This document shows, in pieces, positions 66-28,250 of a DNA stretch of 46,424 nt. How positions within the stretch are numbered: the stretch's first letter is position 1; each line of letters begins with the position of its first letter. A program made the translations under genes and the position numbers. The DNA comes from a virus (lineage: Duplodnaviria; Caudoviricetes): positions 1-46,424 of IMG/VR virus record IMGVR_UViG_3300037762_000087. One strand, written 5' to 3'. Under the pieces are notes generated by a model that was given only the letters and a program-made list of their open reading frames with translations, had not been told where the DNA came from and did not search any database.

Positions 66-1481
66 ATGGCTGGGGTAGGGCGCGACACGGCGTACCTGGC
101 GGCGTGCCGACGGATCGCCCGTGAACTCGGCGCCAAGCCCAATGCCTCGCGCTTCAAGCAGGATCGGGCCTACGCGGCCGTGGTCGGTAATGACCGGCGG
201 AATCGGGCGACGACCGAGGCGTTTCTTTGCTGGCTCCTGCAGCACCACCCCCGTGACGTCATCGCGGCTCGGGTCGCGGCCAATGATCGGATCGGGGCAC
301 CGCGCCGGCACGCCATCTCGGGCGGACGCTGGAGCACAGGGTCGTTGCGCTTTCTGCAGGTTGCGGACGAGATCGGTGACGCGCCGGCCGTGTTGGAAAT
401 CGGGGGCGGCTATGGCGGACAGCGGGTGCTCTGTGCCGACATCAGCGACTACACGATCCTTGACCTGCCCGAGTCGCTGGCGGTGGCACGTGCCTATCTG
501 GCCTGCCACGGTCTCGAGACGCGCTTCGTCGAGCCAGACCGGCTTGACACGATCACAGTTGCGCCTGGGACCTTCTGTCTGAGCGATTACGCCCTGTCGG
601 AATGTGACGACGAGACGATCACTCGATACGCGCCTCTGGTGGCGATGTGTGCGCGTGGACGGATCACGTGTCGTGAGGATCAGGCCGAGCGCATGGCGAG
701 ACTGCTTGGTCCACTGGAATGCTCGGTCGGGCCGGAAACGCCCCCCACGTCGCGTCACGCCAACGTCGTGCTGCGGTTCAGCCGGACCGCGCGCCTCGCG
801 GTGACGCCAACGCTGCGCGACCATACCACGGCCCTGATGGCTCAGCGGCTCCGATCGCCGGCGCCGTGGGCCTGGTCCCGGTGGGGCGATGGCGAATGGA
901 GCGCGATTCTTGGGCGCGGGACGGCCAACTGCGACGGGCAGGCGTATGTGCCGGCGCTCCGAGACGATCTGCGTCGGGTCCTGCTGGGACGGCCGCACTA
1001 TCTGTTGGGTCTTCAGCCGCTGGCCGTGGATCGGTTCGGTTCGGCGATTGCCCGATGGCTCAGCACGCACGATCTCGATCTGCCGTGGTGGAACGCCGAC
1101 GTCTTCCATGATCTCTCGAAGGCCGGGGCGCTCATCGATTTCATTGAGCCCTTGCGCCAGCGCACGGTGTTACTGGTGGGTCCGGCCCATCTGCGCGCGC
1201 TGACGCCTGTGTTGCCGTATGCGGACGTTCTGGAGATTCCCGATCGCGATGCCTATGCCGCGCTCCCGCGCCTCCGGTCTCAACTCGGGGCCGCGCTCGA
1301 TCGGCATGGATCAGATGTCGTGGTCGCGCTCAGCGCGGGCATGTCCGCCAAGATCCTGATTGACGCCTACGCTACTCGCGCGACGCTCATCGACTTCGGC
1401 TCGGTCTGGGAGCCGTACGTCGGCCGCGCGAACCGGTCCTACCATGCGCCGTTACTGCAGGCGCTTGGTGGTGCGGCGTGA
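66..1481 (+). CDS. Fusion of a putative sugar O-methyltransferase (N-terminal) and a GT-D-fold glycosyltransferase-like domain (C-terminal)
   Basis: N-half has LRF..EIGGGYGG..YTILDLP..LSDYALSE, like the TIGR04371 sugar O-methyltransferases. C-half has SRWGDGE..LVGP..SAGMSAK..IDFGSVW, like the DUF1792/GT-D fold. GAGGAG RBS upstream. Confidence 0.7.
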   Translation: MAGVGRDTAYLAACRRIARELGAKPNASRFKQDRAYAAVVGNDRRNRATTEAFLCWLLQHHPRDVIAARVAANDRIGAPRRHAISGGRWSTGSLRFLQVADEIGDAPAVLEIGGGYGGQRVLCADISDYTILDLPESLAVARAYLACHGLETRFVEPDRLDTITVAPGTFCLSDYALSECDDETITRYAPLVAMCARGRITCREDQAERMARLLGPLECSVGPETPPTSRHANVVLRFSRTARLAVTPTLRDHTTALMAQRLRSPAPWAWSRWGDGEWSAILGRGTANCDGQAYVPALRDDLRRVLLGRPHYLLGLQPLAVDRFGSAIARWLSTHDLDLPWWNADVFHDLSKAGALIDFIEPLRQRTVLLVGPAHLRALTPVLPYADVLEIPDRDAYAALPRLRSQLGAALDRHGSDVVVALSAGMSAKILIDAYATRATLIDFGSVWEPYVGRANRSYHAPLLQALGGAA

Positions 1482-2155
1482 GAATCGTCTTGACGAGCGT
1501 CGGGTATGGCGACTTTCTGGCGGTGACGCTAGCCGCCTGGCAGGCCGTCGTGCCGTCTGGCTGCCTGTCGATTGCCACGGCTCCCGGAGACAGCCTCACG
1601 CAGCGTATCGCAGCCGATCGCGGCGTTCCGGTTCTCGTGACCGATGCGTGGTCGCGCACGGATCCCCGGTGCCATGTCGGCCGACGCCCTGGGTTCAACA
1701 TGTCGCTCGGGCTCGATGAGGCGTTGGGGCTCGTGCCAGGTCTGCGTCCGGCGCCGGCCGTTGGCGAACTCTGCGGGCACGTGAATCCGGACTGCTATCC
1801 ACTCGGGGCATGGCCGAACGAGGCGACGTTCGCGCCCGAGACGGTCTACGGGTTCTGGCGTTACGCCTGCGCGAGTCCTGCCGCTCTGACGGCTTACCTG
1901 GGGGGCGACCGCGAGCCCGACGCTTATCCGCGCATGAAGAACGCCAAGCACGGGCCGATCGGCTACTGCCAGATATTTCGCTGGACGTCGGGGATCCGCT
2001 TCGGGTCGTATCCCTCGGCTGGCGGCTTCGATACTGACTTTACGCGCCGGTTCGCGCATCGCGCGATGCGTGACGAGGTGTTCCTGCTGCATCTGGGCGG
2101 CCGCGATCGGGCGAACTGGGCCGGTCGCACCCTGCCTCGCTGGGGGGCGGCATGA
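1478..2155 (+). CDS. Putative glycosyltransferase (GT-A/GT2-like)
   Basis: VGYGDFLAVTL start, NPD at the DxD position, IGYCQIF, and C-terminal HLG..NWAGR, typical of phage GT-A proteins; translationally coupled. Confidence 0.6.
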   Translation: MRIVLTSVGYGDFLAVTLAAWQAVVPSGCLSIATAPGDSLTQRIAADRGVPVLVTDAWSRTDPRCHVGRRPGFNMSLGLDEALGLVPGLRPAPAVGELCGHVNPDCYPLGAWPNEATFAPETVYGFWRYACASPAALTAYLGGDREPDAYPRMKNAKHGPIGYCQIFRWTSGIRFGSYPSAGGFDTDFTRRFAHRAMRDEVFLLHLGGRDRANWAGRTLPRWGAA

Positions 2156-2787
2156 GGCTTGGGATTGCGATGACCACGGCGCCCCGCGCCCGTCCGACGA
2201 TTGAGGCGGCGATGGCCTCGCTCCACGCGGCTGGCTTCGATCAACCCGTCATGACGATTCACGATCCGGAGAAGCGCGGTGCGCTGCCGACGTGGGGGCG
2301 CGCCGTGGCGGCTCTGATCGCATCGACAGCGGACTGGCTGATGATCGTGCAGGACGATGCGAGCTGGGCCCGTCGGTCACGCGAGGCGTTGGAACGCGAG
2401 ATTCTGGCGCTTGGCGATCGCGCTTGGCGCGCGGGGCTCTTGTCGCCATTCCTGGTCAACAAGATCGGCCGCGAACTCCGGCAGCGTGGCGATCTCAGGC
2501 CGGGCTGGCATCCGTCCACGCTGGGCTATCAGTCGGGCGGGGCCCTCTGCTATGTGTTGCCGCGCGCCTCGGCGGAAGCGTTGATGGCCGATCCATGGTT
2601 CGCTGAATGCCTAGCGACGCGGCCCAAGAACATCGATCGCTGGGTCCCTGGTCGGCTGCTGGAACTGGGCTACGACACGCTCTATCGCTACCCCAGCCTT
2701 GTCAATCATGTGCTCGGGTCGGGCAACAGCAGCATCAAGCCCAAGAAGCCGCACGACACCCAGTTTTGGGAGCGGGTGGCGTCATGA
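2152..2787 (+). CDS. Putative glycosyltransferase (GT25/GT2-like)
   Basis: WLMIVQDDA (DxD-like), GALCYVLPR..A, NID, PSLVNH motifs. Confidence 0.65.
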   Translation: MRLGIAMTTAPRARPTIEAAMASLHAAGFDQPVMTIHDPEKRGALPTWGRAVAALIASTADWLMIVQDDASWARRSREALEREILALGDRAWRAGLLSPFLVNKIGRELRQRGDLRPGWHPSTLGYQSGGALCYVLPRASAEALMADPWFAECLATRPKNIDRWVPGRLLELGYDTLYRYPSLVNHVLGSGNSSIKPKKPHDTQFWERVAS

Positions 2788-3515
2788 CGGTTGTGACCTG
2801 GAAGTGGCGACCGGCTCAGGGCTACCGCTCGACGTTCGGGCCTGACGCGGTGAATACGCTGCGCGCGATGGTCCGCCGGCATTACCCGCATCCGCACCGG
2901 TTTGTCTGCGTGACCGACGAGGCCGCAGGGATCGCGCCGGATGTCGAGATTGTGCCAGACTGGGGCGACTTCGCCGACGTGCCTTCGCCTCATGGCGGAC
3001 GGAACCCGAGCTGTTACCGGCGGTTGCGGTTGTTTCACCCCGATGCGTCACGTTGGTTCGGCGACCGGATCGTCTCGCTCGATCTCGACGTCGTGATCAC
3101 GGCCGATCTGGCGCCGCTATGGGATCGGTCAGAGGACTTCGTCGCATGGGGCGACACGAATCCCCTGCCTGGCAGTCACTACAACGGCTCGATGATCCTG
3201 CTCACGGCCGGATCGCGGTCGCAAGTCTGGACACGCTTCGACCCGGCCACCTCCCCGCGCCAGTCGCTCAAGGCTCGGTGTTTCGGCTCCGATCAGGGCT
3301 GGATCAGTTACTGCCTTGGACCGGGCGAAGCGAAGTGGACACGGGCAGATGGCGTCTACAGCTTCCGAAACGAGATCGCGGCTACACGTGCGTTGCCGTC
3401 AAATGCTCGGCTGGTCGTCTTTCATGGCGCGCACGATCCGTGGGATGCCTACGTGCAGGCCAACTATCCATGGGTCCAACTGTACTACCATGATCGCGCC
3501 GAGGTGGCCGCATGA
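2784..3515 (+). CDS. Putative glycosyltransferase (GT-A fold, GT8-like)
   Basis: Start reassigned to ATG 2784, which overlaps the upstream stop. VVTWKW..VNTL..FVCVTD, LDLDVVI (DxD), YNGSM, SDQGWI, VVFHG..DPW. Confidence 0.8.
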   Translation: MTVVTWKWRPAQGYRSTFGPDAVNTLRAMVRRHYPHPHRFVCVTDEAAGIAPDVEIVPDWGDFADVPSPHGGRNPSCYRRLRLFHPDASRWFGDRIVSLDLDVVITADLAPLWDRSEDFVAWGDTNPLPGSHYNGSMILLTAGSRSQVWTRFDPATSPRQSLKARCFGSDQGWISYCLGPGEAKWTRADGVYSFRNEIAATRALPSNARLVVFHGAHDPWDAYVQANYPWVQLYYHDRAEVAA

Positions 3516-4120
3516 GCTGGTGCTGGGACCGGGGCGTGTCGTCGCGGTCGCGGCTGGTGACAGCGCCGGTTGGCCTGCCGCTTGACGTGGCCTATCTGCG
3601 CGACAAGGCGCTCCGGACCGCTGGCGAGACGGTGGAGGATGAGCTGATTGAAGCCTACATAGGCGCGGCGACCGAGGCGGCCGAGCACGACACGGGCCGA
3701 TCGCTGATGCCGCAGACGTGGCAACTGCTGCTCGGCCGGTTCCCGGCGGGCCCGATTGTGCTGCCGAAGCTGCCGGTTCGGGCGGTGACGCTCTTCGAGT
3801 ACGTGGACGAGGACGGAGTGCTGCAGACGCTTCTGGGCTCGCCGCCTGAATACGTGTTTCGCGGCTCGGGAGAATGGAGCCGGGCGGAACTCTCCCCGCT
3901 CTATGGCGAGGTATGGCCGTCCACGCGAGGCGAGGATGATGCGGTGCGCATCACGTACACGACCGGGTACGACGCGACGGCCGAGATTCCGAAGGCGATC
4001 ACGGCTGGCATCGCGCTGCTCGTCGGCGAACTCTATAACCACCGGACGCTCAGCGTGCATGAGGTGCATAACACGCCGGCCACGGTGCAGTTGCCTCGGT
4101 TCTGGAAGCAGGTGCCCTGA
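3512..4120 (+). CDS. Head-tail connector protein (gp6/phiE125 gp8-like)
   Basis: EDELIEAYIGAATEAAE..TGRSLMPQTW, WPST..AVRITYTTGY..IP.AI..GI.LLVGELY.HR. Confidence 0.9.
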   Translation: MSWCWDRGVSSRSRLVTAPVGLPLDVAYLRDKALRTAGETVEDELIEAYIGAATEAAEHDTGRSLMPQTWQLLLGRFPAGPIVLPKLPVRAVTLFEYVDEDGVLQTLLGSPPEYVFRGSGEWSRAELSPLYGEVWPSTRGEDDAVRITYTTGYDATAEIPKAITAGIALLVGELYNHRTLSVHEVHNTPATVQLPRFWKQVP

Positions 4121-4503
4121 TGGCGATCCGCCGTGCCCCCATCGAGCCCGGCCGGTGTCGCTGGCGCGTGACGATCGAGTCGCGTCCAGCCGACGACACG
4201 ACGGACACGAGCGGGGCACCGATCGACGGGCCGTGGACGACGCTACTCGACGACGTGCCCATGGCCCGCACGGATGTGCAGGGCCGTGAGCGGTTCATCG
4301 CGGATCAAGAATCGGCCCTGGCTGACACGCGCTGGGAGATGGGCTATCGAGCCGACATGGACCCGGATCTGGTGGATGTGGTGAAGCTGAGGCGACTCGT
4401 CGTGCGCGGGCGCGTGTACGATATCGAGGCAGCTTCTGTGATGTCCGTCGGCGGTTCCGTGCTGGCGGGTATCGAACTGATGACCCGGGCGAAGGTGGCG
4501 TGA
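4120..4503 (+). CDS. Head closure / head-tail adaptor protein (SPP1 gp16-like)
   Basis: RWRVTIE..D.SG.P...W, GRERF.A, YRADM, R.V.RGRVYDI; gene position. Confidence 0.85.
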   Translation: MAIRRAPIEPGRCRWRVTIESRPADDTTDTSGAPIDGPWTTLLDDVPMARTDVQGRERFIADQESALADTRWEMGYRADMDPDLVDVVKLRRLVVRGRVYDIEAASVMSVGGSVLAGIELMTRAKVA

Positions 4504-4985
4504 TGTTCAGGATGCGACATGAGGGCGGTGAGGCGTTGGCGCAGGCGCTGAATGCACTGCCGCCTCGCGTGTCACGTCGCGCGCTCCTCGATGCGCTGGT
4601 CGAAGCGGGTGAGCCGATGCGGCAGACCATGGGCCGGTTGGCGCCGCGAGAACCCGGAGCCCCGGACATCGCAGACAGCATGGTGATCAGCGAGCTTCGC
4701 ACCAAACTGGGGTCCTTCGAGGGGGAGGATCTGCGGCGGGATGAGTTCCAGCAGGCCGTGGCCGTCGGGCCGTCGAAAGGCTTCTTCTATGGCTACTTCC
4801 AGGAATACGGCACGTCGCGTCATGCGGCTCAGTCCTTTGCGCGTCCCGCCTTCGACTCGGACGCCCCCAAGGCGGTGCCGGTCCTCGCTGCGGCGCTCTG
4901 GCGTCTGTTGGCTGCGCGGGGTATTCAGAAGCCGATGGCGACGAGGCTCGGTCCGGTCACGAGCGTGGGAGGGCGCACACTGTGA
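4500..4985 (+). CDS. HK97 gp10-family tail component
   Basis: L..ALNALP..V.R.AL..A, VGP.KGFFYGYFQEYGTSRHAAQSFARPAFD. Confidence 0.9.
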   Translation: MMFRMRHEGGEALAQALNALPPRVSRRALLDALVEAGEPMRQTMGRLAPREPGAPDIADSMVISELRTKLGSFEGEDLRRDEFQQAVAVGPSKGFFYGYFQEYGTSRHAAQSFARPAFDSDAPKAVPVLAAALWRLLAARGIQKPMATRLGPVTSVGGRTL

Positions 4986-5404
4986 CGCTCACCGCGGCGA
5001 TTCGCACGCGGCTGCTCGCGCAATCGGCGCTGACGGCGCTGGTCGGGACGCGGGTTTACGCGCTCGTGATTCCACAGCAGCCGACCTTGCCGGCAATTCG
5101 GTTGCAGCAGATCGGGCGCGATGAGCCGATGCACCTGCGTGGGCCGGTCACGGTCTTTCGGGCGCGGCTGCAGGTGGATGCCATCGCCTACTCGAAAGAA
5201 ACCGCCGATGCGGTAGACGCGGCTATCGATGGCGACGGGCTGGGGCCTGATGCCACCGGGCTCAAAGGCTGGACGGGCGAGATTGGCAGTCCGCCGTTCG
5301 CGGTGAAGGCGATCTTGCCGGCAGATGTGCGAGAGATGTATCACCCGGAGGAGTTGAAGCAGTACCGGATCAGCCGGGACTACTTTGTATGGTTCAGCCC
5401 ATGA
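4982..5404 (+). CDS. Tail completion/terminator protein (DUF3168-like)
   Basis: AIR.RLLA..ALTALVGTRVY..IPQ..TLPAI, RLQVD, YRISRDY.VW. Confidence 0.85.
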   Translation: MTLTAAIRTRLLAQSALTALVGTRVYALVIPQQPTLPAIRLQQIGRDEPMHLRGPVTVFRARLQVDAIAYSKETADAVDAAIDGDGLGPDATGLKGWTGEIGSPPFAVKAILPADVREMYHPEELKQYRISRDYFVWFSP

Positions 5405-5425
5405 GGTAACACGCCACACGCTCGA

Positions 5426-5582
5426 CGTCGCGACTAGGCCGGCCAGCCGAATCCTGTCCTGACCAGATAGGCAGTCGCGACGACAGAGGTCACGGAGCAA
5501 CGGTCACTCCGGGCAGCGAGGCGCCATGTCTCGTGCTCGCGAGTGGCCGTTTGCTTTTGTGGCTACGGGTCAGGGCACGAGA
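5426..5582 (+). ncRNA. Candidate structured leader or attenuator RNA upstream of the tail tube gene
   Basis: Perfect 10-bp stem 5426-5435/5473-5482; second stem 5496-5509/5541-5555 followed by a U-rich tract; alternative pairing 5529-5538/5573-5582. Confidence 0.45.
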
Positions 5583-5610
5583 GACGAGAGACGACAGAGG
5601 AGTAACGACC

Positions 5611-6108
5611 ATGCCTGACGTGACGGGAACGTTTTACAACTCAGAGGCGCTGATTGGCTACGGCTGGGAGTGGCTGATCGGCGATGGTGCCAGCCCGGAG
5701 GTGTTCGAGGCGGTACCCTTCGTGCGGCGGATCGTGCCGGGCGGCATGCCCACGGCCGTACAGGACGTGACGCACCTGCGGAGCCCGGATGCCCACCGCG
5801 AGAAGAAGGCGACGATCTCCGACAGTGACGCCTTCACGATCGAACTCCAGTACAACCCGACGCACGAGTCGCAGTCGAATCTGGGCGGCGGGAGCGGGGT
5901 GTTCGCGACCGGCGGCATCCTCGCGATGAAGCGGCTCAAGACGGAGAAGAACATGATCCTCCGCGTGCCGACCGGGAGCCCGGCCGATGACTTCCCGTTT
6001 GCGGGCGTGATCACGAACTACGCGATCGGCGAGGTGACCGTCGATGGCGTGGTCATGCTGACGGTCGAAGTGACGCCGCTCCGCAGCTACGCGGCTGGCC
6101 TGCCGTAA
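5611..6108 (+). CDS. Major tail tube protein
   Basis: Start at ATG 5611 after GAGGAG; IGDGASPEVF, DVTHL.SPD..REK, F.GVIT; lies before the chaperones and tape measure. Confidence 0.9.
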   Translation: MPDVTGTFYNSEALIGYGWEWLIGDGASPEVFEAVPFVRRIVPGGMPTAVQDVTHLRSPDAHREKKATISDSDAFTIELQYNPTHESQSNLGGGSGVFATGGILAMKRLKTEKNMILRVPTGSPADDFPFAGVITNYAIGEVTVDGVVMLTVEVTPLRSYAAGLP

Positions 6109-6115
6109 GGGGGCC

Positions 6116-6508
6116 GTGATGGCGAATCGTGAACGCGGCGAAGTGCCGCTCGTCGTGACCAACGGCGACGGCACAACGCACATCTACATCCTGCGGCTGA
6201 GCATCAACGCGCTCTGTGAGGTGGAGGACTTACTGAGCCAGTCGTCTGGGACGCCCGTGAGCTTTACGGAGATTATGGCTCGGGCCGGCACAGGCCGGAT
6301 GCGCGAGATCCGAGCCATTGTCTGGGCGGCGCTTCAGGAGCGGCATCGCGACCAGTTTCCCACGCTGGAATCAGCCGGAGAACTCATCCAGCTCGTGGGC
6401 ATCACCAACCTGGGCGACCAGTTACAGGCGCTTCAGGGCTCGACCACTCCTGACCCGGCCGATGTTGCGGAGTTGCCGAAACCAAACCCTCCCGAGGCTC
6501 AGGGGTAG
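6116..6508 (+). CDS. Tail assembly chaperone (gpG-like)
   Basis: ANRERGEV.L..Y.LRLSINALCEVED, a GTA-gp10-like pattern; lies between tube and tape measure. Confidence 0.8.
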   Translation: MMANRERGEVPLVVTNGDGTTHIYILRLSINALCEVEDLLSQSSGTPVSFTEIMARAGTGRMREIRAIVWAALQERHRDQFPTLESAGELIQLVGITNLGDQLQALQGSTTPDPADVAELPKPNPPEAQG

Positions 6509-6846
6509 CGACGTGGCGATCGTTCTACATCGACGCGCGTCGCTTCGGCCTGAGCGGGGAGGCGTTCTGGGCGCTGACCGTGCGCGAACTCTACCGGGAG
6601 TTCGTCGCGCGGCTGCGCGTGCTGACCGATGACCAAGATCGTGATACCGCCCATGCCTATATGGTGGCGAGTTTCAACGCGGCGACGAAGTCAAAGAAGG
6701 GCCTGAAACCGTTGGCGCACTACTTGTCGAAACCGACGACGGATCGCGGACAGCCGCTCGCGCAGCGGAAGGCCGTGCTGGCGGTGTTGAGCCAGCAGTA
6801 CGGCATCCCGCTTCGGCGAGGGGCCAAGGTGCGACGCCGTGGCTAA
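6481..6846 (+). CDS. Tail assembly chaperone gpT-like C-terminal part, reached by -1 frameshift (fusion 6116-6846)
   Basis: The -1 frame reads ...WRSFYIDARRFGLSGEAFWALTVRELY..., so the gpT-like GL....FW.LT.REL motif lies upstream of the listed GTG start at 6580. Confidence 0.75.
   Translation, partial: TKPSRGSGVATWRSFYIDARRFGLSGEAFWALTVRELYREFVARLRVLTDDQDRDTAHAYMVASFNAATKSKKGLKPLAHYLSKPTTDRGQPLAQRKAVLAVLSQQYGIPLRRGAKVRRRG
6484..6490 (+). promoter_or_regulatory. -1 programmed ribosomal frameshift slippery site A AAC CCT
   Basis: XXXYYYZ heptamer in the correct phase just before the chaperone stop; the -1 frame is open to 6846. Confidence 0.75.
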
Positions 6847-9800
6847 TTCCGCCATCGTCGGCATTCTGCGCGCGCTGCTCATCGCCGATACCGCCGAGTT
6901 CGAGACGGCAATGAAGCGGGCGGCGCAGTCCGCCAAGACGTGGTCGAAGGATCTCGGCGCGGTGGGACGGCAGGCCAGTCAGATCGGGCTTGCACTCACG
7001 AAGACGCTGACGTTGCCCATCGTCGGCTTGGCGACAGCCTCAGCCAAGGCGGCAATCGACTTCGAGTCGAGCTTCGCCGGGGTCCGCAAGACCGTGGACG
7101 CGACCGAGCAGCAGTTTGCCGAACTCGCCCAAGGCTTCCGTGATCTGGCAAAGGAAATCCCGGTCAACGTCAACGAACTCAACAAGATCGGTGAAGCCGC
7201 AGGCCAGCTCGGGATCCAGACGGAGAACATTGTTGGCTTCACCAAGGTCATGGCCGAGCTTGGCGTCACCACGAACCTAAGCTCCGATCAGGCTGCCACA
7301 TCGCTGGCGCGTCTGGCCAACATCACCGGGATGCCGCAGACCGAGTTCGACAAGTTGGGCTCGACCATTGTCGCGCTCGGCAACAACTTCGCCACGACCG
7401 AATCGGAGATCGTGGACTTCGGCCTGCGGATCGCCGGCGCGGGCGAGATTGCCGGCCTGACCGAGTCGCAGATTCTCGCCATTGGCTCGGCCATGTCGTC
7501 GGTTGGCGTGCAGGCCGAAGCTGGCGGCACGGCCGTGCAAAAAGCCTTGAACGCCATGACCAAGGCGGTGGCGACTGGCAACCAGGATCTGGCCGTCTTC
7601 GCGCAGACAGCGGGTATGTCCGCCAAGGAGTTCGCGGCGGCGTTCCGCGAGGATGCGGGCGCGGCCTTCACGGACTTCGTGGAGGGGCTGGGGATTCAAG
7701 GCGACAAGGCGTTTACGACGCTGGACCGGCTGAAGCTGGGGAACGAGCGGGTCATTCGCGCCTTCCTGTCGCTCTCCAATGCGGGCGACCTGCTCAGGCG
7801 CAATCTGGACCTGGCCTCCGATGCCTGGCGCGAGAACACGGCGCTCACCGAGGAAGCGCGCAAGCGATTCGAGACCACGGCCTCACAACTCACGTTGCTC
7901 TGGAACGCGGTGAAGGACGTTGGGATCACGCTGGGCAATGCGTTGCTGCCGGCGATTCAGTCGGCGATTGCAGCCGCTAAGACGCTCACGCCGGTGCTGG
8001 ACAAGCTGGCGCAGGGCTTCGCGGATCTGCCGGGCGGCGTGCAGCTCGTCATCCTCGGTTTTGGCGGGCTGGTGGCCGCGGCCGGGCCTGTCCTGTTCGT
8101 CGCTGGCCAACTCATCACGGCAGCCTCCACGCTCATCGGGGCTTTCACGAAGCAGGGCATCGCCATGCGGGCCCTGAACGCGATCTACGGCGAAACCACT
8201 GTCGCGGCAACAACCGCCTCAGCGGCCATGACGCGATTCTGGTTGGCGCTCATTGGTCCTGCTGCCGCCTTTGCTGGTGTCGCGCTCATCGCGAAGGCGC
8301 TGAAGGACGCGCAGTTTGAAGCGGAAGGCTTGGGCGAGAAAACAAAGGCGGCTCTTCGGGAACTCGACAAGCTCGAACGATTCGGTGTCGTGACTGGCAA
8401 GGCAGGGCGTCAACTCGTGACCGGTCAAGACATTGCGCTGCCGCTCGAACGAGCCGCCGCGGCGGTCGGCGAAGTCGGCGCCTCGAGTGCTGGTGCCCAG
8501 AAACCGGTGGCCGGTCTCAATCGTGAACTGGACGGCTTGGGCGACACGTCCGATGCGCTGACCAAGCGCCTGGAAGCGCTGGGCGAGACCTTGTCCGGCC
8601 GGGCCCTCCAGCAGCAGGTGGACGAAACCGCCCTGGCGATTCAGCGGCTCGGCGGCATTCAGGCCGTGAGCGCTGCTCAGCAACGCACGCTAGCCGCATC
8701 AACGCTGGAGTGGGCCCGGGCCGGCGCGGCGCTCCCGCCGGTACTGCTCGACAACTGGCTGGCGAATATGTCGCTGGCCGAGAGCCTTGGCGGGGTGAGC
8801 CGGAACATCAAGGACGTGCTGGACCAGGCGCGTGACATGCCCGAGGTCATGAAAGCGTGGGAGAAGTCCTGGGGCAAAGACTCGGTCATCGCCAAGGGCC
8901 TCAGCGGCGTGCTGAAGATCGGCATTGGCACGCCGGAGATCGGGACGGACTTCACTGAGAAGCTGAAGGCGCAGTGGGCGTTCATGTTCGAGGAAATGAA
9001 GCCGGTGGCTGTCCGGCTTCACGAAGGGCTGCTTGAAGCCACCCGTGGCCTGCCGTCTGTCCTGATGCAGGCGCTCACGGGTGGCGGGGATATCGGGAAG
9101 TCGATCGGCGGTCTGTTCAGCGGATCGCTCTTCGGCAAACTGACCGGCGCGTTCGACGAGAAGTCCGGGCTCTTTGCCGGTGGCATCGGCGGGCTTTTAC
9201 AGAAGACGCTGGGCAAGACGATCGGCGGCGTCTTCGGGTCGCTCATTCCTGGGCTTGGGACACTCCTCGGCGCCGGCCTTGGCGGGTTGCTGGACAAGGT
9301 ATTCGACCGCTCCAAGGGGCGCGATCTTGTCAAGCAATTTGCCGAGCAAATGGGCGGCTTCGACGCGCTGCGCGAGAAGCTGCTGGTGCTTGGCGATGAG
9401 GGCGAACGGCTCTGGGTGAAGCTGACGCAGGGCGTGGGCCGCAACGACCCGAAGGCGGCACAGGCGGCGATTGACGCCATCACGAAGGCGTTGGAGCGCC
9501 AGCAGCAGCAGCTTGAGAAGGTCAAGCAGACCCTGGCCGGCGAAGGCATCTGGGACCGGATGACGCGCGAGATGGCGGCGGCCTCACTGGCAACGGGCGA
9601 AGACCTGCTTGGGATGGCTGATGCGATCGAACGCCAGCAGCAGCGGCTCGGCGCCGGCCTCATGGGCGTCACCGCTGTCGTGGCTGGTACACAGGAGGAG
9701 TTCGATCGACTGAGCCGGATCGCGCTGAGCACGTTCAATACCTTGGTCTCGTCCGGCATGGGGTCGGCCGATGCGATGCGCCAGATCGGGCCTTCGATCG

Positions 9801-10693
9801 ATGCGCTTATCGCCCAGCTCGACACGCTTGGCTTCACAAGCTCAGAGGCGCTGGACATTCTGCGTCGCTGGGCGGGGCTGGTGTCTGAGAATCAGCCGCT
9901 CCTTGATCAGATCGCCGGACTCAACGAACTCCTGATCGCAACCGCCAATCTGGGCGGGCTGACCGAAGACGCCTTTGACGATTTAGAGGCGCAAGGGCGA
10001 TCAGCCTTCGCCGCACTGCTCGAAGCTGGATTTACCGAAGCCGAAGCGTTGCGCCAGATGGCGCCGCTCCTCCAAACACTGATCGATCTGCACAAGGACC
10101 GCGGCCTCACGATCGACGAGGAAACCCAGAAGCTCATCGATCAGGCGCGTGAGCAGGGCCTGCTGGCCGAAGAAGGGATGGCCACCAACGACATTCTCAT
10201 CGAAGGGCTCGGCAAAATCATCGAACTGCTCGGCGGCCAACTCCCAGAATCCTGGCGTCAGATGTCGCAGCAGGCACGCGATGCGGTCGGAGATATTCGT
10301 GATTCGGTCGATGACCTGGGACGTTCCTTGACCGATCTCCCCGGCGTGCCGAGTACGAAGTTTGACATGGTATTCGATCCAGGCATGCGAATGGACCTGC
10401 CGGAGCTGGCTGGCGGCGGTGTGGTGACTCGACGCATGCAGGCGATTGTCGGTGAGGCTGGGCCCGAGGCGATTGTGCCGCTGGAGCGGTTCGAGTCGAT
10501 GCTGTCGCAAGCCATGGCCTCGCAGGGCGGGAGCAGCGCCCCGAACATCACGATTCAGGCGTTCGATGCCCTGTCGGTTCGCGAGTGGCTGGTCCGCACC
10601 GGCGGCCATGAGCTCCTGCGCTACTTCGAGACAAACGACGGCGGCGGATCTCCAGTGAGTCCGCTCACGCGCTTCAAGGCGCTGGCGACATGA
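6839..10693 (+). CDS. Tape measure protein
   Basis: 1284 aa, Ala/Gly-rich helical; TP901-type core (AIDFESSFAGVRKTVD, LGSTIVALGNNFATTE, AEAGGTA); C-terminal LAGGGVV..VGEAGPEAIVPL. Confidence 0.97.
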   Translation: MANSAIVGILRALLIADTAEFETAMKRAAQSAKTWSKDLGAVGRQASQIGLALTKTLTLPIVGLATASAKAAIDFESSFAGVRKTVDATEQQFAELAQGFRDLAKEIPVNVNELNKIGEAAGQLGIQTENIVGFTKVMAELGVTTNLSSDQAATSLARLANITGMPQTEFDKLGSTIVALGNNFATTESEIVDFGLRIAGAGEIAGLTESQILAIGSAMSSVGVQAEAGGTAVQKALNAMTKAVATGNQDLAVFAQTAGMSAKEFAAAFREDAGAAFTDFVEGLGIQGDKAFTTLDRLKLGNERVIRAFLSLSNAGDLLRRNLDLASDAWRENTALTEEARKRFETTASQLTLLWNAVKDVGITLGNALLPAIQSAIAAAKTLTPVLDKLAQGFADLPGGVQLVILGFGGLVAAAGPVLFVAGQLITAASTLIGAFTKQGIAMRALNAIYGETTVAATTASAAMTRFWLALIGPAAAFAGVALIAKALKDAQFEAEGLGEKTKAALRELDKLERFGVVTGKAGRQLVTGQDIALPLERAAAAVGEVGASSAGAQKPVAGLNRELDGLGDTSDALTKRLEALGETLSGRALQQQVDETALAIQRLGGIQAVSAAQQRTLAASTLEWARAGAALPPVLLDNWLANMSLAESLGGVSRNIKDVLDQARDMPEVMKAWEKSWGKDSVIAKGLSGVLKIGIGTPEIGTDFTEKLKAQWAFMFEEMKPVAVRLHEGLLEATRGLPSVLMQALTGGGDIGKSIGGLFSGSLFGKLTGAFDEKSGLFAGGIGGLLQKTLGKTIGGVFGSLIPGLGTLLGAGLGGLLDKVFDRSKGRDLVKQFAEQMGGFDALREKLLVLGDEGERLWVKLTQGVGRNDPKAAQAAIDAITKALERQQQQLEKVKQTLAGEGIWDRMTREMAAASLATGEDLLGMADAIERQQQRLGAGLMGVTAVVAGTQEEFDRLSRIALSTFNTLVSSGMGSADAMRQIGPSIDALIAQLDTLGFTSSEALDILRRWAGLVSENQPLLDQIAGLNELLIATANLGGLTEDAFDDLEAQGRSAFAALLEAGFTEAEALRQMAPLLQTLIDLHKDRGLTIDEETQKLIDQAREQGLLAEEGMATNDILIEGLGKIIELLGGQLPESWRQMSQQARDAVGDIRDSVDDLGRSLTDLPGVPSTKFDMVFDPGMRMDLPELAGGGVVTRRMQAIVGEAGPEAIVPLERFESMLSQAMASQGGSSAPNITIQAFDALSVREWLVRTGGHELLRYFETNDGGGSPVSPLTRFKALAT

Positions 10694-11532
10694 GCGGCTT
10701 CCGCTACTCGCACCCGCGGGATCAACTGTTGCGGACCGCGACGTCGGTCACCGTGTCGCTGGCCAATGCGCTCACCGACTACGGCGCAGAGAACCTGTCG
10801 ATTGGCGACCCGGCGCATCCGTTCAAGGCCGATGCTGGCACCGTGCGCGTGGTGTGGGGATGGGCCAGTCCCGTATTTCCCAAGCTCATCGCGCTGCTCA
10901 ACAGCAATCTCGATGTGGCGGCGCGCTGGCAGGGGCACACGTCATCGGACTTCGATGGCAGTCCAGGGCCGGACATCGATGTGGCTTTCGGTGTGCCGGC
11001 CTACAACGCGCAGACAGGCTTTTTCACGTCGCCGTGGCTCAACATGTCGGCGTACGAGGCGAAACCGTTCTGGAGCCTGCTGGTCACGGCGAACACGCTC
11101 GATGCCATCGTCGGTGAACTCTGGGCCGGCTCGGACATTCGCGACGTGGCGCACCACCTGCTGCTCGATGGGGCCTCCCTGAATCTGGACAGCAACGCGG
11201 TGATCCATCAGACGGGCTACGGCGTGGATCTGTCCTACGAACAAACGACCGAGCGCGAATCCATGACGGGCCAGCTTTATCTGGAAACGCCGGCCGAACA
11301 TGCCGCGGTGCGGGCGTGGGTGCAGGCGGCTCGCCGCAACGCGCGGCCGTGCGTCGTGGTCCCGGATGTGGATGTCGATGACGCCTGGCACGTCAAGCTG
11401 ACGGAAGCGGTCTTTGCGGTCAAGCCAACCGTTCCTGGGGCCTCAGCACAAGCGCCGGAACAGGCCGAGGTCATGCTCGGGTTTCGGATGACGTCGCGGG
11501 GGATGCCGTGGGTGGACCCCGATGCGGACTAG
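10690..11532 (+). CDS. Distal tail / minor tail protein
   Basis: Directly after the tape measure gene and coupled to it; beta-rich, 280 aa. Confidence 0.55.
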   Translation: MSGFRYSHPRDQLLRTATSVTVSLANALTDYGAENLSIGDPAHPFKADAGTVRVVWGWASPVFPKLIALLNSNLDVAARWQGHTSSDFDGSPGPDIDVAFGVPAYNAQTGFFTSPWLNMSAYEAKPFWSLLVTANTLDAIVGELWAGSDIRDVAHHLLLDGASLNLDSNAVIHQTGYGVDLSYEQTTERESMTGQLYLETPAEHAAVRAWVQAARRNARPCVVVPDVDVDDAWHVKLTEAVFAVKPTVPGASAQAPEQAEVMLGFRMTSRGMPWVDPDAD

Positions 11533-14500
11533 CCATGCGCGTTGGATCTGCATTCTGGTGCTGTTACTGATGGCTGGACACCGTCAAATCTTCGTGCAGG
11601 TCTCGCGCGTGGCGTCCGACGATGTGACGTCACAGCAACACACGACGCCGTTCAACTTCGGCTGCGGGACGTGGGTCTCGACGGCTACCGAAGGCGCGCA
11701 AATCCCAGTGCTGGTCGCTGGCACGTTCCGGAACATGAAGCTGACGCTGCCGAGCGTGCAAACGAAGGCGCAGACGTTCACGCTGCGCGAGAACGGATCG
11801 GACACCGCGCTCACGTTCACGATTCCAGCCGGGGAACTCACGGGTCAGATCGCGGGCGTGGACGTGGCGCATGCGGCGGGCGGCGAGATTGCGCTGGCTC
11901 GCACGCTGCCGGACGGATCGGGCGCGACGGTGCCCATTGGCTCGACGTTCTCGATCGAATGGGAGGCTGCATCCGGGAACGCTTGCGTGCATGGGCATGG
12001 GAGCCAAGGCTTATTGTCGCTGCTCGGCTCGACGTACGCCGGCCTGCTGCATCACGGGTCAAACCCGAACTTCTCCGAGGACGACGCGCCGAATCTGATC
12101 GCCGCCCCTGGCACGGTCACGCACTGGAAGCACGTGCTCGACGCGGCGCCAGGCGCCGGCAAGAGCTACATCTTCACGATCGTGAAAGTGGTGGCTGGCG
12201 TCGGCATCGAACAGGACGGCACGGGAGGCACACCGGATACACGGATCACGATTGCCGACGCAGAGACCGAGGGCAGCGCGACGTTCTCGCTGCCGCTCGT
12301 CCGCGGCGACCTCGTGTACCGCAAATGCGAGCCGGTGGGGTCGCCCGCCTTTGCGCGCGTGCGGACGGGCGTCGTCTTGGTCTCGGACACCACGGACCAA
12401 TCGAATCTCTGCGGCACGACGAATGATGGTATCGGAACCGGTCCGGAGTACAACACCATCGCGGCCGGATCTGAGCACCCCTGGGATCCGACCGAGGTCG
12501 GCCTCACCGTGCTCGGCGCTGTTCGTTCACTCACGCTCTCCGGGCTCATTGTCGCGGTCGATGATGCGCCCGGATCTGGTGACGCCTGGACCTTCCTCAT
12601 TCGACGGAACGAGGCGACACCGCTGAACGGGCCGAGCGTCACGATCGCTGATGCCGCTGTGACTGGCCAGGACGACAGCGGGTCAGTGGAGATCCAGCCG
12701 ACCGACACGGCGTCGATTCAGTACGACGACAGCGGGACGCCGACGCCGACCGTGGCGATCTGGGCGCTGGCGCTCTTTGCCGGCGAGATCGATGAAGCGC
12801 TGTCCCTCGAAAACGCGCTCCGCGGCGAAGACGTGGCGCTCGCCTGGGTGGAGTTCGAGGGCCAGGACGACGACGGGAATGACGAGACATTCGTCTGGTC
12901 CGGCATCGCGTTGGCCGATCCGGACACCTACTACGGCGGCTTCAAGGACGCCAAGCTCATTCTCGTCAGCGATCTCGTCTCTGCGTATTCAGATCGTTCC
13001 GGCCGCTTGCAGGCGACGAAGGCGAGCTTTGAACTCTCCGACCTGCCTGATGCGGACGGCAACCGGTCTATTGCGGCCTTCTTCGATCGCTCGACGGGCT
13101 ACGTGGTGCGAAACACGCCCATCACGATCCGGCTCATCAGCGACCGCGGCCGGCGGGCCTTGCGGACGCCCGTGACCATCTTCCGGGGCATGGTTGATGA
13201 AGCCTCCAGCGTCGATGAATACCGGATCCGGTTCGAGTGCGTGAGTTGGCTGGAGCGGCGCTTAGATCAGCCCGTGGTGGAGCGTCGCATTGGCGAGGAC
13301 TTCCCTGAAGCCGACGAGGATGCCCGCCAGTTGCCCGTGCCGCTGTGCTTGGGGCGGTTATCCGACGAAGCCTCCACCACGCCCGGGCCGGTCATTACTG
13401 ATGACGAAGCGGGCCGTGGAGTGTTCGCGATTCTCAGCGACGTCATCGGATATGGCGACCTCGGCGGCGATCCGCCCACGAGTCTTGTGCCGGTGGAGGA
13501 TGTCGGGGCTGGCGAAGTGGTGGCGGGCCGCTACTACTTCATGGCGTGGTCGATTGACGCCACCGGAGCCGAAAGCGACCCGGAGCCATTTGTCCCGAAC
13601 GCGAACGCGCTGGACGTGAGCGACGACGCGGCGATTGATGTTACGTTCACAAAGGGCGCGTCTGCGGTCACGACGCGCGTGGCGATTGGCGCAAAAGGCC
13701 CAGGGACGCCGCTCATCTACTTCGAGCACATCCTGGAAACCGCCGGCACGTCGGTGCGCTTCACGCGGCTGATCAAGCCGCCAACGGGGTATCTGAATCC
13801 CCACGATGCGACGCCTGGATCGATCTGGCCTTACGGCATCGGCTATCGCAGGTTACAAGTCGTGGCCGTTGTCGATGGCGAGGAAACGCTGCCGTCGATT
13901 GTCGTCGTGGCGTTCATTGACCCGTATCACCGGCCAATGCGGTTCGCGTGGGAGGCCGTGGTTGATGCGACCGAGTACCGCGTCTATCTGGCCTCCAGCA
14001 ATTACCGGCCGAATCCGCCGGCCTTCCACTTCGACCGGCGTCTGTCGGTCCCGATCACGCAGACGAACAGCAACGGCGACCCGTATGTCAGCGCGCTCTT
14101 TACCGATCCGGCGTGGGAGGTGGTCGATGGGCTAGAGAACGTGGCGCGTGGCGTCGTGCCGCTCCGGTTTGTCGGGTACTTTATCGACCTGACCGGCCGG
14201 AGCGTCGGCGGCTTTCTTGTCGCCGGACACACGCTCGCTACAAACGGCATCATCAATCTCTATCAGGATCAAGTGGTCATTACCGACGACCACTACACGG
14301 CCGGCGACTACATGGCGCCGGGCAAGCCAAGTTTCTCGACCTACTTCGCTAACACGTATCAAACGATCAACGGCCACCGGTACGTGCTCGTCTACATCGC
14401 GGCGACGGGCGTAGCGAATCCAAACCTGGACGACGCGATCACCGGATCGCGGCCGCTCTACGCCAACTGTTATGGTGCGGACGATGTGGGTGACGGCACC

Positions 14501-15793
14501 GGCGCTGAAATCACATCCAAGTACCAGCTCCTTAAGCTACTGCTGCGTAATCTCCTTGCGCCCTCCGTGCCGGTGCTCGGCACGAACTGGCTGACTGCCT
14601 CCCCGACGTTTGCCGACGGCGTGGCAATGATCGACGAGGCGAGTCTGGATGATGCCGAAGCGGAAGCGGGCAATCTGATTCCAAACGGACCGGATGGCGG
14701 GCGCTATCTCGCGGTCGATCTGACGTGGGCGCAACTGTTCCCCGATTGGTGCCCCTCGGCCAAGGCGCACATCGGCGTGACGCTGCAAGGGCAGGTGCGC
14801 GCGGGTGTCATCAACCCGGATGCAGACTCGGTTGTGACGGTCACCGAACAGCGCGAGATCATCAAGGGCTCGTTCGGGTGGCGCGACCGGGCTCAAGCCT
14901 TCGGCAATGCTGTAGCTTATCAGGCCGTGCCCGTCTACAGCCTGTCGGGCATCAGCGCGTATGCCGACGCGGACGAACTCGAACACACCGCGTCACAGGC
15001 CAGGCATCGCGGCGAACGGAACCTGCAACCAGCCCTGACCTTGACGTGGATCCGAGAGCCCGGCACGGCTCGGCAAATTGCCTCGGCGTTTCTCGATGAA
15101 GGCGCGTATCTGCCACGTGAAGTCCGGCAGAGTTCGGTCCTGCACTGGGTCCATCGCCGGCTCGGGGATGTGATCGGCGTTGTGCATCGCGAAGGGGCGG
15201 CCAGAACCGGATGGACCAGCACGAGTCCGCGTAAACATGCCGTGCTGGGGATACGGATTTCGATTCCGTCGAATCGGGTCGAGTATGTCTGTCTCGATTT
15301 GCGCCGGCACCTTGGCGACTTGTCGGACTTTGAACTGGAGTTGCTGATGTCTGTGATTCCGCTGGGCGGATCGATGCTGGACAGTTGTCTGGAGGATCCC
15401 GACGCGGGATCGCCCGTGATCAGTGTGCCGCCAGATTGGCGGATCGGCGTCGTGAATTGGGACGACATCCCGAGTGGTGGCGGGGCTGGCAGCGCATACG
15501 AGCTCGTGTTCGATGTCGATGCCAAAATCCAGCCCGGATCGCCCGTGGGCAGTCCGCCGCCGACGGTGCAGCCGGGCCTGTTCCTGAGTAACCAAAGCCA
15601 GATCGATACCCCCGTCGCGGCCGGCACGGCGACAAGTTCGGCGGTGCGCGAACGGCAACAGATCGTGGTGGATCGTCCGGTGGGCGGCGGCGTCAAGTCC
15701 TACTGGATGTTGCCGATTCTCGACAACGGCGCCGTCGCGACGGACGCCTACGTGTACGGCGTGCTCCGAATGAGGAAGGTCGGAGCGGAGTAA
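11522..15793 (+). CDS. Large tail tip / hub-fibre protein (multidomain)
   Basis: 1423 aa, at the Tal position; three related N-terminal beta modules (e.g. APGAGKSYIFTI / APGSGDAWTFLI); hub-like LPVPLCLGRLSD and LGDVIGV.H segments. Confidence 0.65.
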   Translation: MRTSHARWICILVLLLMAGHRQIFVQVSRVASDDVTSQQHTTPFNFGCGTWVSTATEGAQIPVLVAGTFRNMKLTLPSVQTKAQTFTLRENGSDTALTFTIPAGELTGQIAGVDVAHAAGGEIALARTLPDGSGATVPIGSTFSIEWEAASGNACVHGHGSQGLLSLLGSTYAGLLHHGSNPNFSEDDAPNLIAAPGTVTHWKHVLDAAPGAGKSYIFTIVKVVAGVGIEQDGTGGTPDTRITIADAETEGSATFSLPLVRGDLVYRKCEPVGSPAFARVRTGVVLVSDTTDQSNLCGTTNDGIGTGPEYNTIAAGSEHPWDPTEVGLTVLGAVRSLTLSGLIVAVDDAPGSGDAWTFLIRRNEATPLNGPSVTIADAAVTGQDDSGSVEIQPTDTASIQYDDSGTPTPTVAIWALALFAGEIDEALSLENALRGEDVALAWVEFEGQDDDGNDETFVWSGIALADPDTYYGGFKDAKLILVSDLVSAYSDRSGRLQATKASFELSDLPDADGNRSIAAFFDRSTGYVVRNTPITIRLISDRGRRALRTPVTIFRGMVDEASSVDEYRIRFECVSWLERRLDQPVVERRIGEDFPEADEDARQLPVPLCLGRLSDEASTTPGPVITDDEAGRGVFAILSDVIGYGDLGGDPPTSLVPVEDVGAGEVVAGRYYFMAWSIDATGAESDPEPFVPNANALDVSDDAAIDVTFTKGASAVTTRVAIGAKGPGTPLIYFEHILETAGTSVRFTRLIKPPTGYLNPHDATPGSIWPYGIGYRRLQVVAVVDGEETLPSIVVVAFIDPYHRPMRFAWEAVVDATEYRVYLASSNYRPNPPAFHFDRRLSVPITQTNSNGDPYVSALFTDPAWEVVDGLENVARGVVPLRFVGYFIDLTGRSVGGFLVAGHTLATNGIINLYQDQVVITDDHYTAGDYMAPGKPSFSTYFANTYQTINGHRYVLVYIAATGVANPNLDDAITGSRPLYANCYGADDVGDGTGAEITSKYQLLKLLLRNLLAPSVPVLGTNWLTASPTFADGVAMIDEASLDDAEAEAGNLIPNGPDGGRYLAVDLTWAQLFPDWCPSAKAHIGVTLQGQVRAGVINPDADSVVTVTEQREIIKGSFGWRDRAQAFGNAVAYQAVPVYSLSGISAYADADELEHTASQARHRGERNLQPALTLTWIREPGTARQIASAFLDEGAYLPREVRQSSVLHWVHRRLGDVIGVVHREGAARTGWTSTSPRKHAVLGIRISIPSNRVEYVCLDLRRHLGDLSDFELELLMSVIPLGGSMLDSCLEDPDAGSPVISVPPDWRIGVVNWDDIPSGGGAGSAYELVFDVDAKIQPGSPVGSPPPTVQPGLFLSNQSQIDTPVAAGTATSSAVRERQQIVVDRPVGGGVKSYWMLPILDNGAVATDAYVYGVLRMRKVGAE

Positions 15794-16147: not shown

Positions 16148-16642
16148 ATGGGTGCGTTGCCGACGGTCGTCAGGCCGAAGCAGGTGATTGAGATGACAGC
16201 GTTCAGCGCGGCGCAGCGGTACGTCGGTATCCGCGAAATTGCCGGTGTGGCGAATCATCCGCTCGTCGTCTGGTGGCATTCGCTCTGCGGGATGGCCGAT
16301 GCCACCGATGAGGTGCCGTGGTGCAGCTCATTCGTGAACGGTGTGTGCTGGCAGCTTCGACTTGCGCGGAGCAAGAGCGCGGCGGCGCGGAGTTGGCTAC
16401 TGGTCGGTGAGCCAGTCGCGCTCCGCGACGCGGAGGTCGGGTTCGATGTCGTGGTGTTGAAGCGCGGCGTCGGCGCGCAACCAGGGCCTGAGGTGACAAG
16501 TGGGGCGCCAGGGCATGTCGGCTTCTTCGCTGGCCGCGATGGCAATGCCGTGATCGTGCTCGGCGGAAATCAGGGGAATGCCGTCAGCCTGGCGCGGTTT
16601 AAGGCCGCCGACGTGCTGGGTGTGCGGAGGGTCTCGCGATGA
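16148..16642 (+). CDS. TIGR02594-family (NlpC/P60/CHAP-like) peptidoglycan hydrolase, probable endolysin
   Basis: G.REI.G, DEVPWCSSFVN, SAAARSWL.VG, GHVGFF, VLGGNQGNAV; catalytic Cys and His present. Confidence 0.88.
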   Translation: MGALPTVVRPKQVIEMTAFSAAQRYVGIREIAGVANHPLVVWWHSLCGMADATDEVPWCSSFVNGVCWQLRLARSKSAAARSWLLVGEPVALRDAEVGFDVVVLKRGVGAQPGPEVTSGAPGHVGFFAGRDGNAVIVLGGNQGNAVSLARFKAADVLGVRRVSR

Positions 16643-20832: not shown

Positions 20833-21291
20833 ATGCTGCTGGCGTCTGTGCTGGCCGGATGGCTAGGGCCGATGACAGGTGTCAATCCGGCTCTGTCGCC
20901 AGCGGCTATCCACGCGGCCGTCGTGGCGCTCCAGCAGGCGAGTGACGGGCAGAACGAGCCGACGGTCGAGCACCGGACGGCGTCCCGTAGAGGGCTTCTG
21001 GCGGCTCGGCTGGCCGTGGGTACGCAGATGGTGACGTGCGCCACCGATTACGGCGTGACCATGTACGCGATGGGGACTGGTCGGTTCGAGGAGCAAAACC
21101 CGCTCTGGGCATGGGCCGAGCACCGGCCCGTGGCGATGGGCACGGTGAAGTTGGGCCTGTGCGCTGGCGTGTCGGCGCTGCTCCTGAAAGAACACCGGGC
21201 GCATCCGTGGCGGACGGTCGCCATCGGCAGCGTGCTGACCGGTATGAGTGTCTGGGCCACGGCGCGCAATGCGCGCGCGATTGGCCGGTAG
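20833..21291 (+). CDS. DUF5658-like membrane protein
   Basis: TD..VT...M..G.FEEQNPL, ..VKLG.., hydrophobic helices. Confidence 0.5.
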   Translation: MLLASVLAGWLGPMTGVNPALSPAAIHAAVVALQQASDGQNEPTVEHRTASRRGLLAARLAVGTQMVTCATDYGVTMYAMGTGRFEEQNPLWAWAEHRPVAMGTVKLGLCAGVSALLLKEHRAHPWRTVAIGSVLTGMSVWATARNARAIGR

Positions 21292-21383
21292 TTCGTCCGG
21301 GGTGCTGGCTCGCTGGGCCCGTCTCTCTGCTCAGGAGGCGGGGAAGGGGTCATGGCCTCGGACGGAGAGTGGAGCGTAGAGAC

Positions 21384-23945: not shown

Positions 23946-23959
23946 ACAGGAGCACATGG

Positions 23960-24750: not shown

Positions 24751-24754
24751 ATAG

Positions 24755-25504: not shown

Positions 25505-25515
25505 GGGAGTGACCG

Positions 25516-28044: not shown

Positions 28045-28045
28045 C

Positions 28046-28240: not shown

Positions 28241-28250
28241 AAGGGAGCCC

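Follow-up and report, generated by a model that had tools for sequence, protein, structure and literature searches.

To our knowledge, glycosylation of virus particles has been shown only in a few mycobacteriophages, and there at protein C-termini. Serine is the residue that carries the glycan, and the enzymes concerned are Che8 gp108-110 and Corndog gp36-38. In Che8, Corndog and Myrna (Freeman et al. 2023), phage glycosyltransferases are proposed to coat the capsid and tail tube (PMC12619734, PMC12363180, PMC11256854; cited further in PMC12582341 and PMC10955285). The Che8 capsid and tail tube are reported to be glycosylated at their C-termini (PMC12619734), and both sequences end in Gly-Ser. 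A second point of reference is the bacterial enzyme Maf, which is described (PMC7591256) as a cytoplasmic enzyme that O-links ulosonic acids to the Ser/Thr residues of flagellin. Here we analyse IMG/VR record IMGVR_UViG_3300037762_000087, a linear virus sequence from a sediment metagenome (63% complete by CheckV, 65% GC), whose whole length of 46,424 nucleotides (nt) we call the window. It opens inside a cassette of transferase genes and continues with lambda/HK97-like neck and tail genes, in whose products the tripeptide Gly-Ser-Pro (GSP) recurs. From gene co-occurrence in relatives and a predicted fold, we consider it likely that the GSP loops are acceptor sites of a Maf-like transferase that would start an O-glycan, with other cassette genes extending and capping it.

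An earlier, sequence-only reading of the window had counted nine GSP tripeptides, which are indeed present at 3836, 5285, 5974, 10646, 10957, 12338, 15407, 15536 and 15548 with the flanking residues it quoted. Its five codon sets are also correct, and since the codons differ a DNA repeat is ruled out as the source of GSP. It had expected about one occurrence, and the composition of each protein gives 1.13 for the eight virion open reading frames (ORFs; 3782 amino acids (aa)), against the nine observed (Poisson P 3e-6). GSP is present in six of these eight ORFs; in the tripeptide enrichment analysis that the same reading had proposed, it ranks first and is the sole tripeptide found in at least five of the eight proteins. 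A tripeptide of any kind was equally extreme in 6 of 2000 shuffles, and in two of eight control-phage virion sets the top tripeptide reached P <= 2e-6 (YQV in S20, GGG in CcrColossus). Thus, one genome alone is not decisive, and we reject single-genome statistics as proof. The chaperones and glycosyltransferases had been described as free of GSP, which is true of the window (chaperones, 0 in 218 aa with 0.05 expected; four cassette genes, 0 in 1150 aa with 0.35 expected; both too small to carry weight) but not of its relatives: the nucleotide-binding loop of a GT2 family from related cassettes reads DDGSP at 15 of 19 loci, and GSP therefore also arises as an ordinary turn. The later late genes contain no GSP in 3710 aa (1.16 expected).

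The evidence that carries our reading comes from comparison across relatives. Loci (cited below by L number) were gathered with tail-tube alignments and scanned with profiles of their own gene families, single-sequence locus searches having yielded 0 and 1 loci; those with unreadable cassette status were excluded from both sets described here. The first set comprises 32 non-redundant loci with a portal/capsid-to-tube stretch, excluding the short locus L119 and the outgroup S20, and counting as a miss L177, whose tube is cut by the contig end. A cassette is present at 24 of the 32, and all 24 glycosyltransferase-bearing loci contain a gene for a Maf-like protein. Ser-Pro occupies the tube hairpin at 23 of the 24 loci with this gene and one of the eight without it, that single case lying in a non-homologous inserted domain. 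The first tube loop carries Ser-Pro at 22/24 versus 2/8 loci, and the capsid ends in GS or GSPx at 14/19 versus 0/7. No match to the Maf-like gene was found anywhere in the eight negative records, with a positive control of 4/4.

A similar association was found in the second set, 39 loci with another tail-tube family, called different since separate profiles were needed to find its members. First-loop Ser-Pro is present at all 12 loci with the Maf-like gene and 2 of the 27 without it, and any GSP in the tube, terminator or connector at 11/12 versus 0/27, with totals of 25 GSP in 5526 aa and 0 in 10,571 aa, respectively. On trees built with the motif masked, presence or absence of the Maf-like gene switches six times or more in each of the two sets. 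Across 12 branch-independent pairs, GSP density was higher with the gene in 11 (one of them with equal GSP counts over unequal lengths) and tied in one. Where the first Maf-like copy and at least two neck or tube proteins were available, 55 of 59 loci have GSP in neck or tube proteins or a GS/GSPx capsid tail. The check proposed in the sequence-only reading thus came out in its favour: Ser-Pro or GSP is found in short loops that are optional, and its presence goes with that of the cassette both in two tube families and through the 12 independent pairs. Across these sequences, GSP is a real, lineage-wide protein motif, and it follows the Maf-like gene, not glycosyltransferases in general. The broader rule that any glycosyltransferase cluster implies GSP is rejected by S20, PAJU2, Psp6 and L339.

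The sites themselves differ in how well they are conserved (the neck, tail and cassette genes given with coordinates up to 15793 are all on the + strand). In the head-tail connector (3512..4120; gp6/phiE125 gp8-like, PF05135, phrog_442), GSP at 3836-3844 lies inside a short insertion; compared as proteins without genome context, the 11 closest homologues all have Ser-Pro at the aligned site (seven GSP, two ASP, two VSP), and five more distant ones lack it. The tail terminator (4982..5404; PF11367) has GSP at 5285-5293, where Ser-Pro aligns at 26 of 50 glycosyltransferase-bearing loci versus one of eight loci without glycosyltransferases. The tail tube protein (5611..6108) is predicted to have the lambda gpV fold (AlphaFold model, pLDDT 88; Foldseek E 1e-7 and TM 0.71 to gpV). 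In this model an ASP at 5689-5697 lies in the first loop, between strands 20-24 and 32-34, and the GSP at 5974-5982 is a hairpin turn between strands 112-119 and 126-139. At the 86 evaluable of 102 non-redundant loci, this hairpin reads GSP in 61, VSP in five, ASP in two and xTP in eight, with none of these in ten. Its serines are encoded by TCN in 54 cases and AGY in 14, and threonine replaces serine in 8 of 76. The window tube ends GLP, and capsids of relatives often end GSPA, GSPS or GS. The motif that is tolerated is (G>A,V,S)-S-P, together with GS at the C-terminus of the capsid.

Over the 50 glycosyltransferase-bearing loci, where counts come from homologous sites and are not independent, GSP is enriched in the terminator (26 versus 1.6 expected), the tube (50 versus 4.2) and two connector families (8 versus 1.2 and 5 versus 0.2), as well as in capsid and Dit-like proteins. 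The portal, head-closure and neck proteins of these loci contain none (2.7, 1.2 and 2.0 expected). The sequence-only reading had extended the motif across the whole particle, and its connector, terminator and tube sites held up, whereas its distal sites did not or were weaker. The tape measure (6839-10693) has GSP near its C-terminus at 10646..10654; none of the other full-length C-termini inspected has it, the nearest (L083) reading GAP. This site is specific to this genome and probably incidental, and its place in the system is not supported. The Dit-like protein (10690..11532; named by position only, phrog_8610 of unknown function) has GSP at 10957-10965, and Ser-Pro occurs in the same loop of 4 of 15 homologues (L121, L157, L162, L147). 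Of the four GSP in the 1423-aa tail tip protein (11522..15793), at 12338, 15407, 15536 and 15548, three fall within the C-terminal 130 aa. GSP or GSPx forms the C-terminal end of several related tip proteins (L050, L074, L172), while others lack GSP. The tail-tip sites are weaker than the neck and tube sites because large tip proteins of relatives without the Maf-like gene also contain GSP.

The gene that the motif follows belongs to phrog_4603, encodes about 200 aa and is nearly always first in the cassette. A model of one product (L008, pLDDT 90) has as its best fold match the Maf structure 5mu5 (Z 16.1, root-mean-square deviation 3.5, 185 residues aligned); of the 632 residues in that chain, 262-517 are covered, with 14% identity. 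Second in rank is 8sd5, a pterin pyrophosphokinase (Z 11.7); a sialyltransferase scores Z 10.6, and thiamine pyrophosphokinases match at Z 7-9. Pfam gave a weak MptE-like match only, and a PDB sequence search with the Maf-like profile returned nothing meaningful. The product is thus predicted to have a Maf/GT29-like catalytic fold. It is a single domain encoded in phage morphogenesis operons and does not have the full-length, multi-domain architecture of Maf. Downstream of it, cassettes of relatives combine GT2, GT8, GT9, GT-D, TOD1-like and methyltransferase genes (Pfam, PHROGs) in many ways. In some, a radical SAM/SPASM enzyme or PIG-L de-N-acetylase is encoded as well (L035 875-1939, L074 3550-5082, L043 5769-6509), which suggests further glycan tailoring. 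At L041 and L056 the Maf-like gene stands alone between the connector and head-closure genes and the motif is kept; L041 has a homologue of window cassette gene 4 farther downstream.

Several observations weigh against this reading. In the first set, the terminator site taken alone does not reach significance (10/24 versus 1/8, P 0.21), and loci without glycosyltransferases contain 9 GSP in 14,460 aa compared with 56 in 40,494 aa (P 0.016), including the terminator of L179 and the first tube loop of L068 and L075. These records are 25-63% complete, so genes elsewhere could have been missed. In the second set, the two classes came from different queries (the Maf-like gene and the portal), a possible bias in their comparison. 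L339 and L343 have the gene and show no GSP in their available neck or tube genes. The outward orientation of both tube loops is presumed from the known gpV fold. The pterin pyrophosphokinase 8sd5 shares the fold of the Maf-like product, and flagellin acceptors of Maf are described as having no known sequence consensus (PMC7591256). Additionally, the Maf-like gene has no match in the 46-kb window record, 63% complete as it is.

This last point needs to be seen together with where the record begins. The contig break falls within the cassette, at gene 1; terminase, portal and capsid genes are not on the 46-kb contig, and the Logan contig from the sole public run with this DNA extends it upstream by 11 nt only. 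Because homologues of genes 1, 2 and 4 are accompanied by the Maf-like gene wherever the cassette start is visible (4/4, 6/6 and 51/51 loci, redundant loci included), the Maf-like gene of the window phage is probably just upstream, beyond the break. With the Maf-like gene missing from the window, extension and capping are the more likely roles of the four genes that can be seen. They had been read as four coupled glycosyltransferase genes. The coupling is confirmed, with 4-nt overlaps among them and with the connector gene, and several phage-encoded glycosyltransferases are indeed present, though the four differ in how clearly they can be assigned. Gene 1 (66..1481), whose frame is open to the contig edge and whose start is uncertain, encodes a putative N-terminal sugar O-methyltransferase (TIGR04371, E 2e-10, 40.5 bits, below the cut-off of 44) fused to a GT-D-like domain (residues ~242-470 match GT-D/GT-D-like clusters among Atlas structure rows, TM 0.76-0.85 by row). 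Gene 2 (1478..2155) is a likely GT-A/GT2-like glycosyltransferase with NPD where DxD is expected (NAD or NVD in homologues); its Atlas language-model feature score is 0.98 against a cluster in which 36% of members carry PF00535, and it has no Pfam, PHROG or relevant NCBIfam match. Gene 3 (2152..2787) is a possible, weakly supported GT-A glycosyltransferase with QDD at residue 67 (phrog_854 glucosyltransferase, E 0.009) and one homologue, within the Maf-led cassette of L021. Gene 4 (2784..3515) is clearly a glycosyltransferase, with DLD at residue 100 (phrog_1962, E 1e-10), 55% identical to phage S20 gp41; the four records it matched in the phage collection include no mycobacteriophage. Pfam matches none of the four. 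The gene 4 family is an unlikely initiating enzyme: L007, L012, L056 and L081 are GSP-positive without it, and the 55% identical S20 copy coexists with 0 GSP in 12 virion proteins. In L324 (10715-12423) and L321 (5299-7031), which lack a Maf-like gene, another two-gene insert, by eye a methyltransferase and a glycosyltransferase, lies between the terminator and tail tube genes.

Cultured phages with distant members of the family also count against a general rule. Genes of phrog_4603 annotated as alpha-2,3-sialyltransferase occur in D3 (orf7), PAJU2 (gp10), the P1 pmgO region, S20 and CcrColossus (gp126). They belong to the same family as the Maf-like gene of the window's relatives at 30-37% identity, and in D3, PAJU2, Psp6 and S20 the family member lies, as it does there, among head-neck genes with other transferase genes. 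Their virion proteins show no GSP excess (S20 0, P1 0, Psp6 1, PAJU2 2, CcrColossus 2), apart from D3 with 5 versus 1.3 expected and a GSP in the first loop of its tail tube. All six of the cultured sequences that were tested lie outside the clade of nearly all GSP-associated copies (FastTree, midpoint root), which would confine the motif to a single branch of the Maf-like family. S20 (NC_020840, L002), recorded as 'Tetraselmis viridis virus S20', has a tailed-phage gene set and a long glycosyltransferase cassette between capsid and head-closure genes, which includes two Maf-like genes alongside virion proteins free of GSP. Among the head-neck genes of Pseudomonas phages D3, PAJU2 and Psp6, a distant Maf-like gene is accompanied by a methyltransferase gene and by a conserved neighbour that resembles a transferase. 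In their tail tube loops, and twice in the PAJU2 adaptor, we observed D-S-[NS]-G (L264 10074-10595; L265 7055-7429 and 10721-11215; L266 34111-34599), possibly a different acceptor motif in these cultured phages. The P1 pmgO-region protein (L267) matches in 560 plasmid records, 503 of them from Escherichia; pmgO and pmgP are reported to be non-essential (PMC10695390), and the main text of PMC9024508 does not mention them.

Other explanations of the motif have to be set against these data. GSP may be a real enzyme tag that receives something other than a sugar, with the Maf-like protein transferring phosphate, pyrophosphate or a nucleotide, or a proline-directed kinase reading Ser-Pro, and with the glycosyltransferases perhaps building on that linker. 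The pterin and thiamine pyrophosphokinase matches and the weak MptE-like Pfam match would suit this idea, yet Maf leads by more than 4 Z units, sialyltransferases rank high too, and the cassettes led by this gene are made up of GT2, GT8, GT9, GT-D and O-methyltransferase genes; we regard the idea as unlikely. We think it quite unlikely that GSP is simply a favoured beta-turn which the phages inherited along with their neck-tail module, so that shared ancestry explains why it accompanies the cassette. The motif occurs at different positions in two tube families, in two connector families and in capsid tails, it follows the gene through the 12 independent pairs, and threonine, which would suit a turn just as well, seldom occupies the site. 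What speaks for plain inheritance is that first-loop Ser-Pro persists in L068, L075 and S20, that DGSP occurs at an internal capsid site of loci without glycosyltransferases as it does in the GT2 nucleotide-binding loop, and that large tip proteins of relatives without the Maf-like gene have GSP.

The loops could instead be non-covalent docking sites for a phage protein, whether a decoration protein or the Maf-like protein built into the virion itself, an idea encouraged by the PAJU2 homologue being annotated 'structural protein' and by the P1 homologue lying at pmgO/pmgP, with 'putative morphogenetic function'. PAJU2 and P1 are not enriched in GSP, however, and strict serine, variable flanks and C-terminal GS tails would better fit a hydroxyl acceptor, which makes docking very unlikely in our view. 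It seems highly improbable that the target of the cassette is phage DNA or the host surface and that the motif has nothing to do with it. Phage glycosyltransferases acting on DNA or host serotype are reported as established (PMC12619734), but here the cassette is placed between the portal and neck genes and its genes overlap by 4 nt, it co-occurs tightly with a protein motif on virion subunits, and its lead gene resembles a protein O-glycosyltransferase.

We therefore return to the Maf-like transferase and its candidate sequon. As would be expected of a sequon, GSP recurs in non-homologous candidate acceptors and follows an enzyme gene, and the comparisons strongly support it as the site that this transferase recognises. 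In the mechanism we propose, the Maf-like enzyme would attach the first sugar to a serine, either within G-S-P or in a terminal G-S, on the short loops of connector, terminator and tail tube and, in relatives, at the capsid C-terminus. It would presumably act in the cytoplasm, on subunits or assembled particles, and its donor would probably be a host ulosonic acid activated with cytidine monophosphate (Kdo or a nonulosonate). PF02348 cytidylyltransferases are present in the probable host type (best E 7e-51), and likewise in 11 of 14 control genomes. Variable downstream genes would then extend and methyl-cap the chain, here the methyltransferase/GT-D fusion and three GT-A-type enzymes, and an exchangeable cassette would give each phage its own surface coat. 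Such a coat may protect virions against proteases, grazers or host defences, or alter adsorption. Of the virion O-glycan on GSP that had been put forward for the window, the tracking of optional loops with the cassette thus stands, and the tracking gene is predicted to be Maf-like and is absent from the window.

More broadly, we give about even credence to the view that in widespread soil and sediment phages a minimal, single-domain Maf-like enzyme reads GSP, or a terminal Gly-Ser, as a portable sequon and O-glycosylates any virion loop bearing it, while an exchangeable extending and capping cassette sets the virion 'serotype'. This would be a cytoplasmic O-glycosylation system, directed by a sequon and transferable to other proteins. 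If true, virion glycosylation would extend to a large group of uncultured phages, the common 'sialyltransferase/hypothetical' gene of head-neck operons would be explained, and a short tag for cytoplasmic O-glycoengineering would become available. The finding supplies a candidate enzyme (about 200 aa) and a candidate sequon, and loci that have or lack the gene serve as natural controls. In the article listings and opening lines of abstracts covered by our survey of the open-access literature, we found no description of a GSP sequon or of virion glycosylation by a Maf-like enzyme.

Other parts of the window and of related loci also merit mention. The two tail assembly chaperone ORFs (6116-6846) look to be joined by a programmed -1 frameshift, the second frame being open from a point ahead of the stop of the first, across CCGAAACCAAACCCT near 6475-6490. 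A small peptidoglycan-hydrolase-like protein 3' of the tail tip gene (16148-16642; phrog_1259, E 5e-21) is likely an endolysin. Beyond the lysis region, 21036-28565 encodes a CEMIP beta-helix protein, a LamG-domain protein and an 842-aa Ala/Thr-rich protein, large late genes that may be fibres or decorations and whose called ORFs contain no GSP. An ERF and YqaJ recombination pair, a Dam-type adenine methyltransferase and a long C5 cytosine methyltransferase occur at 32034-33463, 37262-38197 and 40040-41758. In L301 (13235-14458), a 407-aa ORF after the portal region has about 17 Ser-Pro in repeats (SGASP, GTSP), and no Maf-like match. One related prophage sits in a Vicinamibacterales genome, a weak hint at the host of the window phage.

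Membership in the Che8-type or the Maf family is not established, and the system resembles each in part. The sequence-only reading had leaned on glycosyltransferases encoded among structural genes as the precedent, an arrangement that is not general: the Che8-type genes of Maravista are reported near the 3' end of the genome (PMC11256854). A possible likeness to Che8 lies in the C-termini, since its capsid and tube end in Gly-Ser and the capsids of Maf-bearing relatives end in GS or GSPx in 14 of 19 cases. In contrast to Che8, the motif described here occurs internally as well, in loops of several virion proteins that are not homologous to one another, the tracking gene is Maf-like, and the cassette lies between portal and neck genes. 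Additionally, unlike the mycobacteriophages, the window phage probably does not have an actinobacterial host. With the Maf flagellin O-glycosyltransferases (5mu5; PF01973 fold), the lead gene of relatives shares a predicted fold. It differs from them in its length of about 200 aa, which corresponds to the central domain only, and in its apparent acceptors, which are virion proteins with a short linear motif instead of flagellin.

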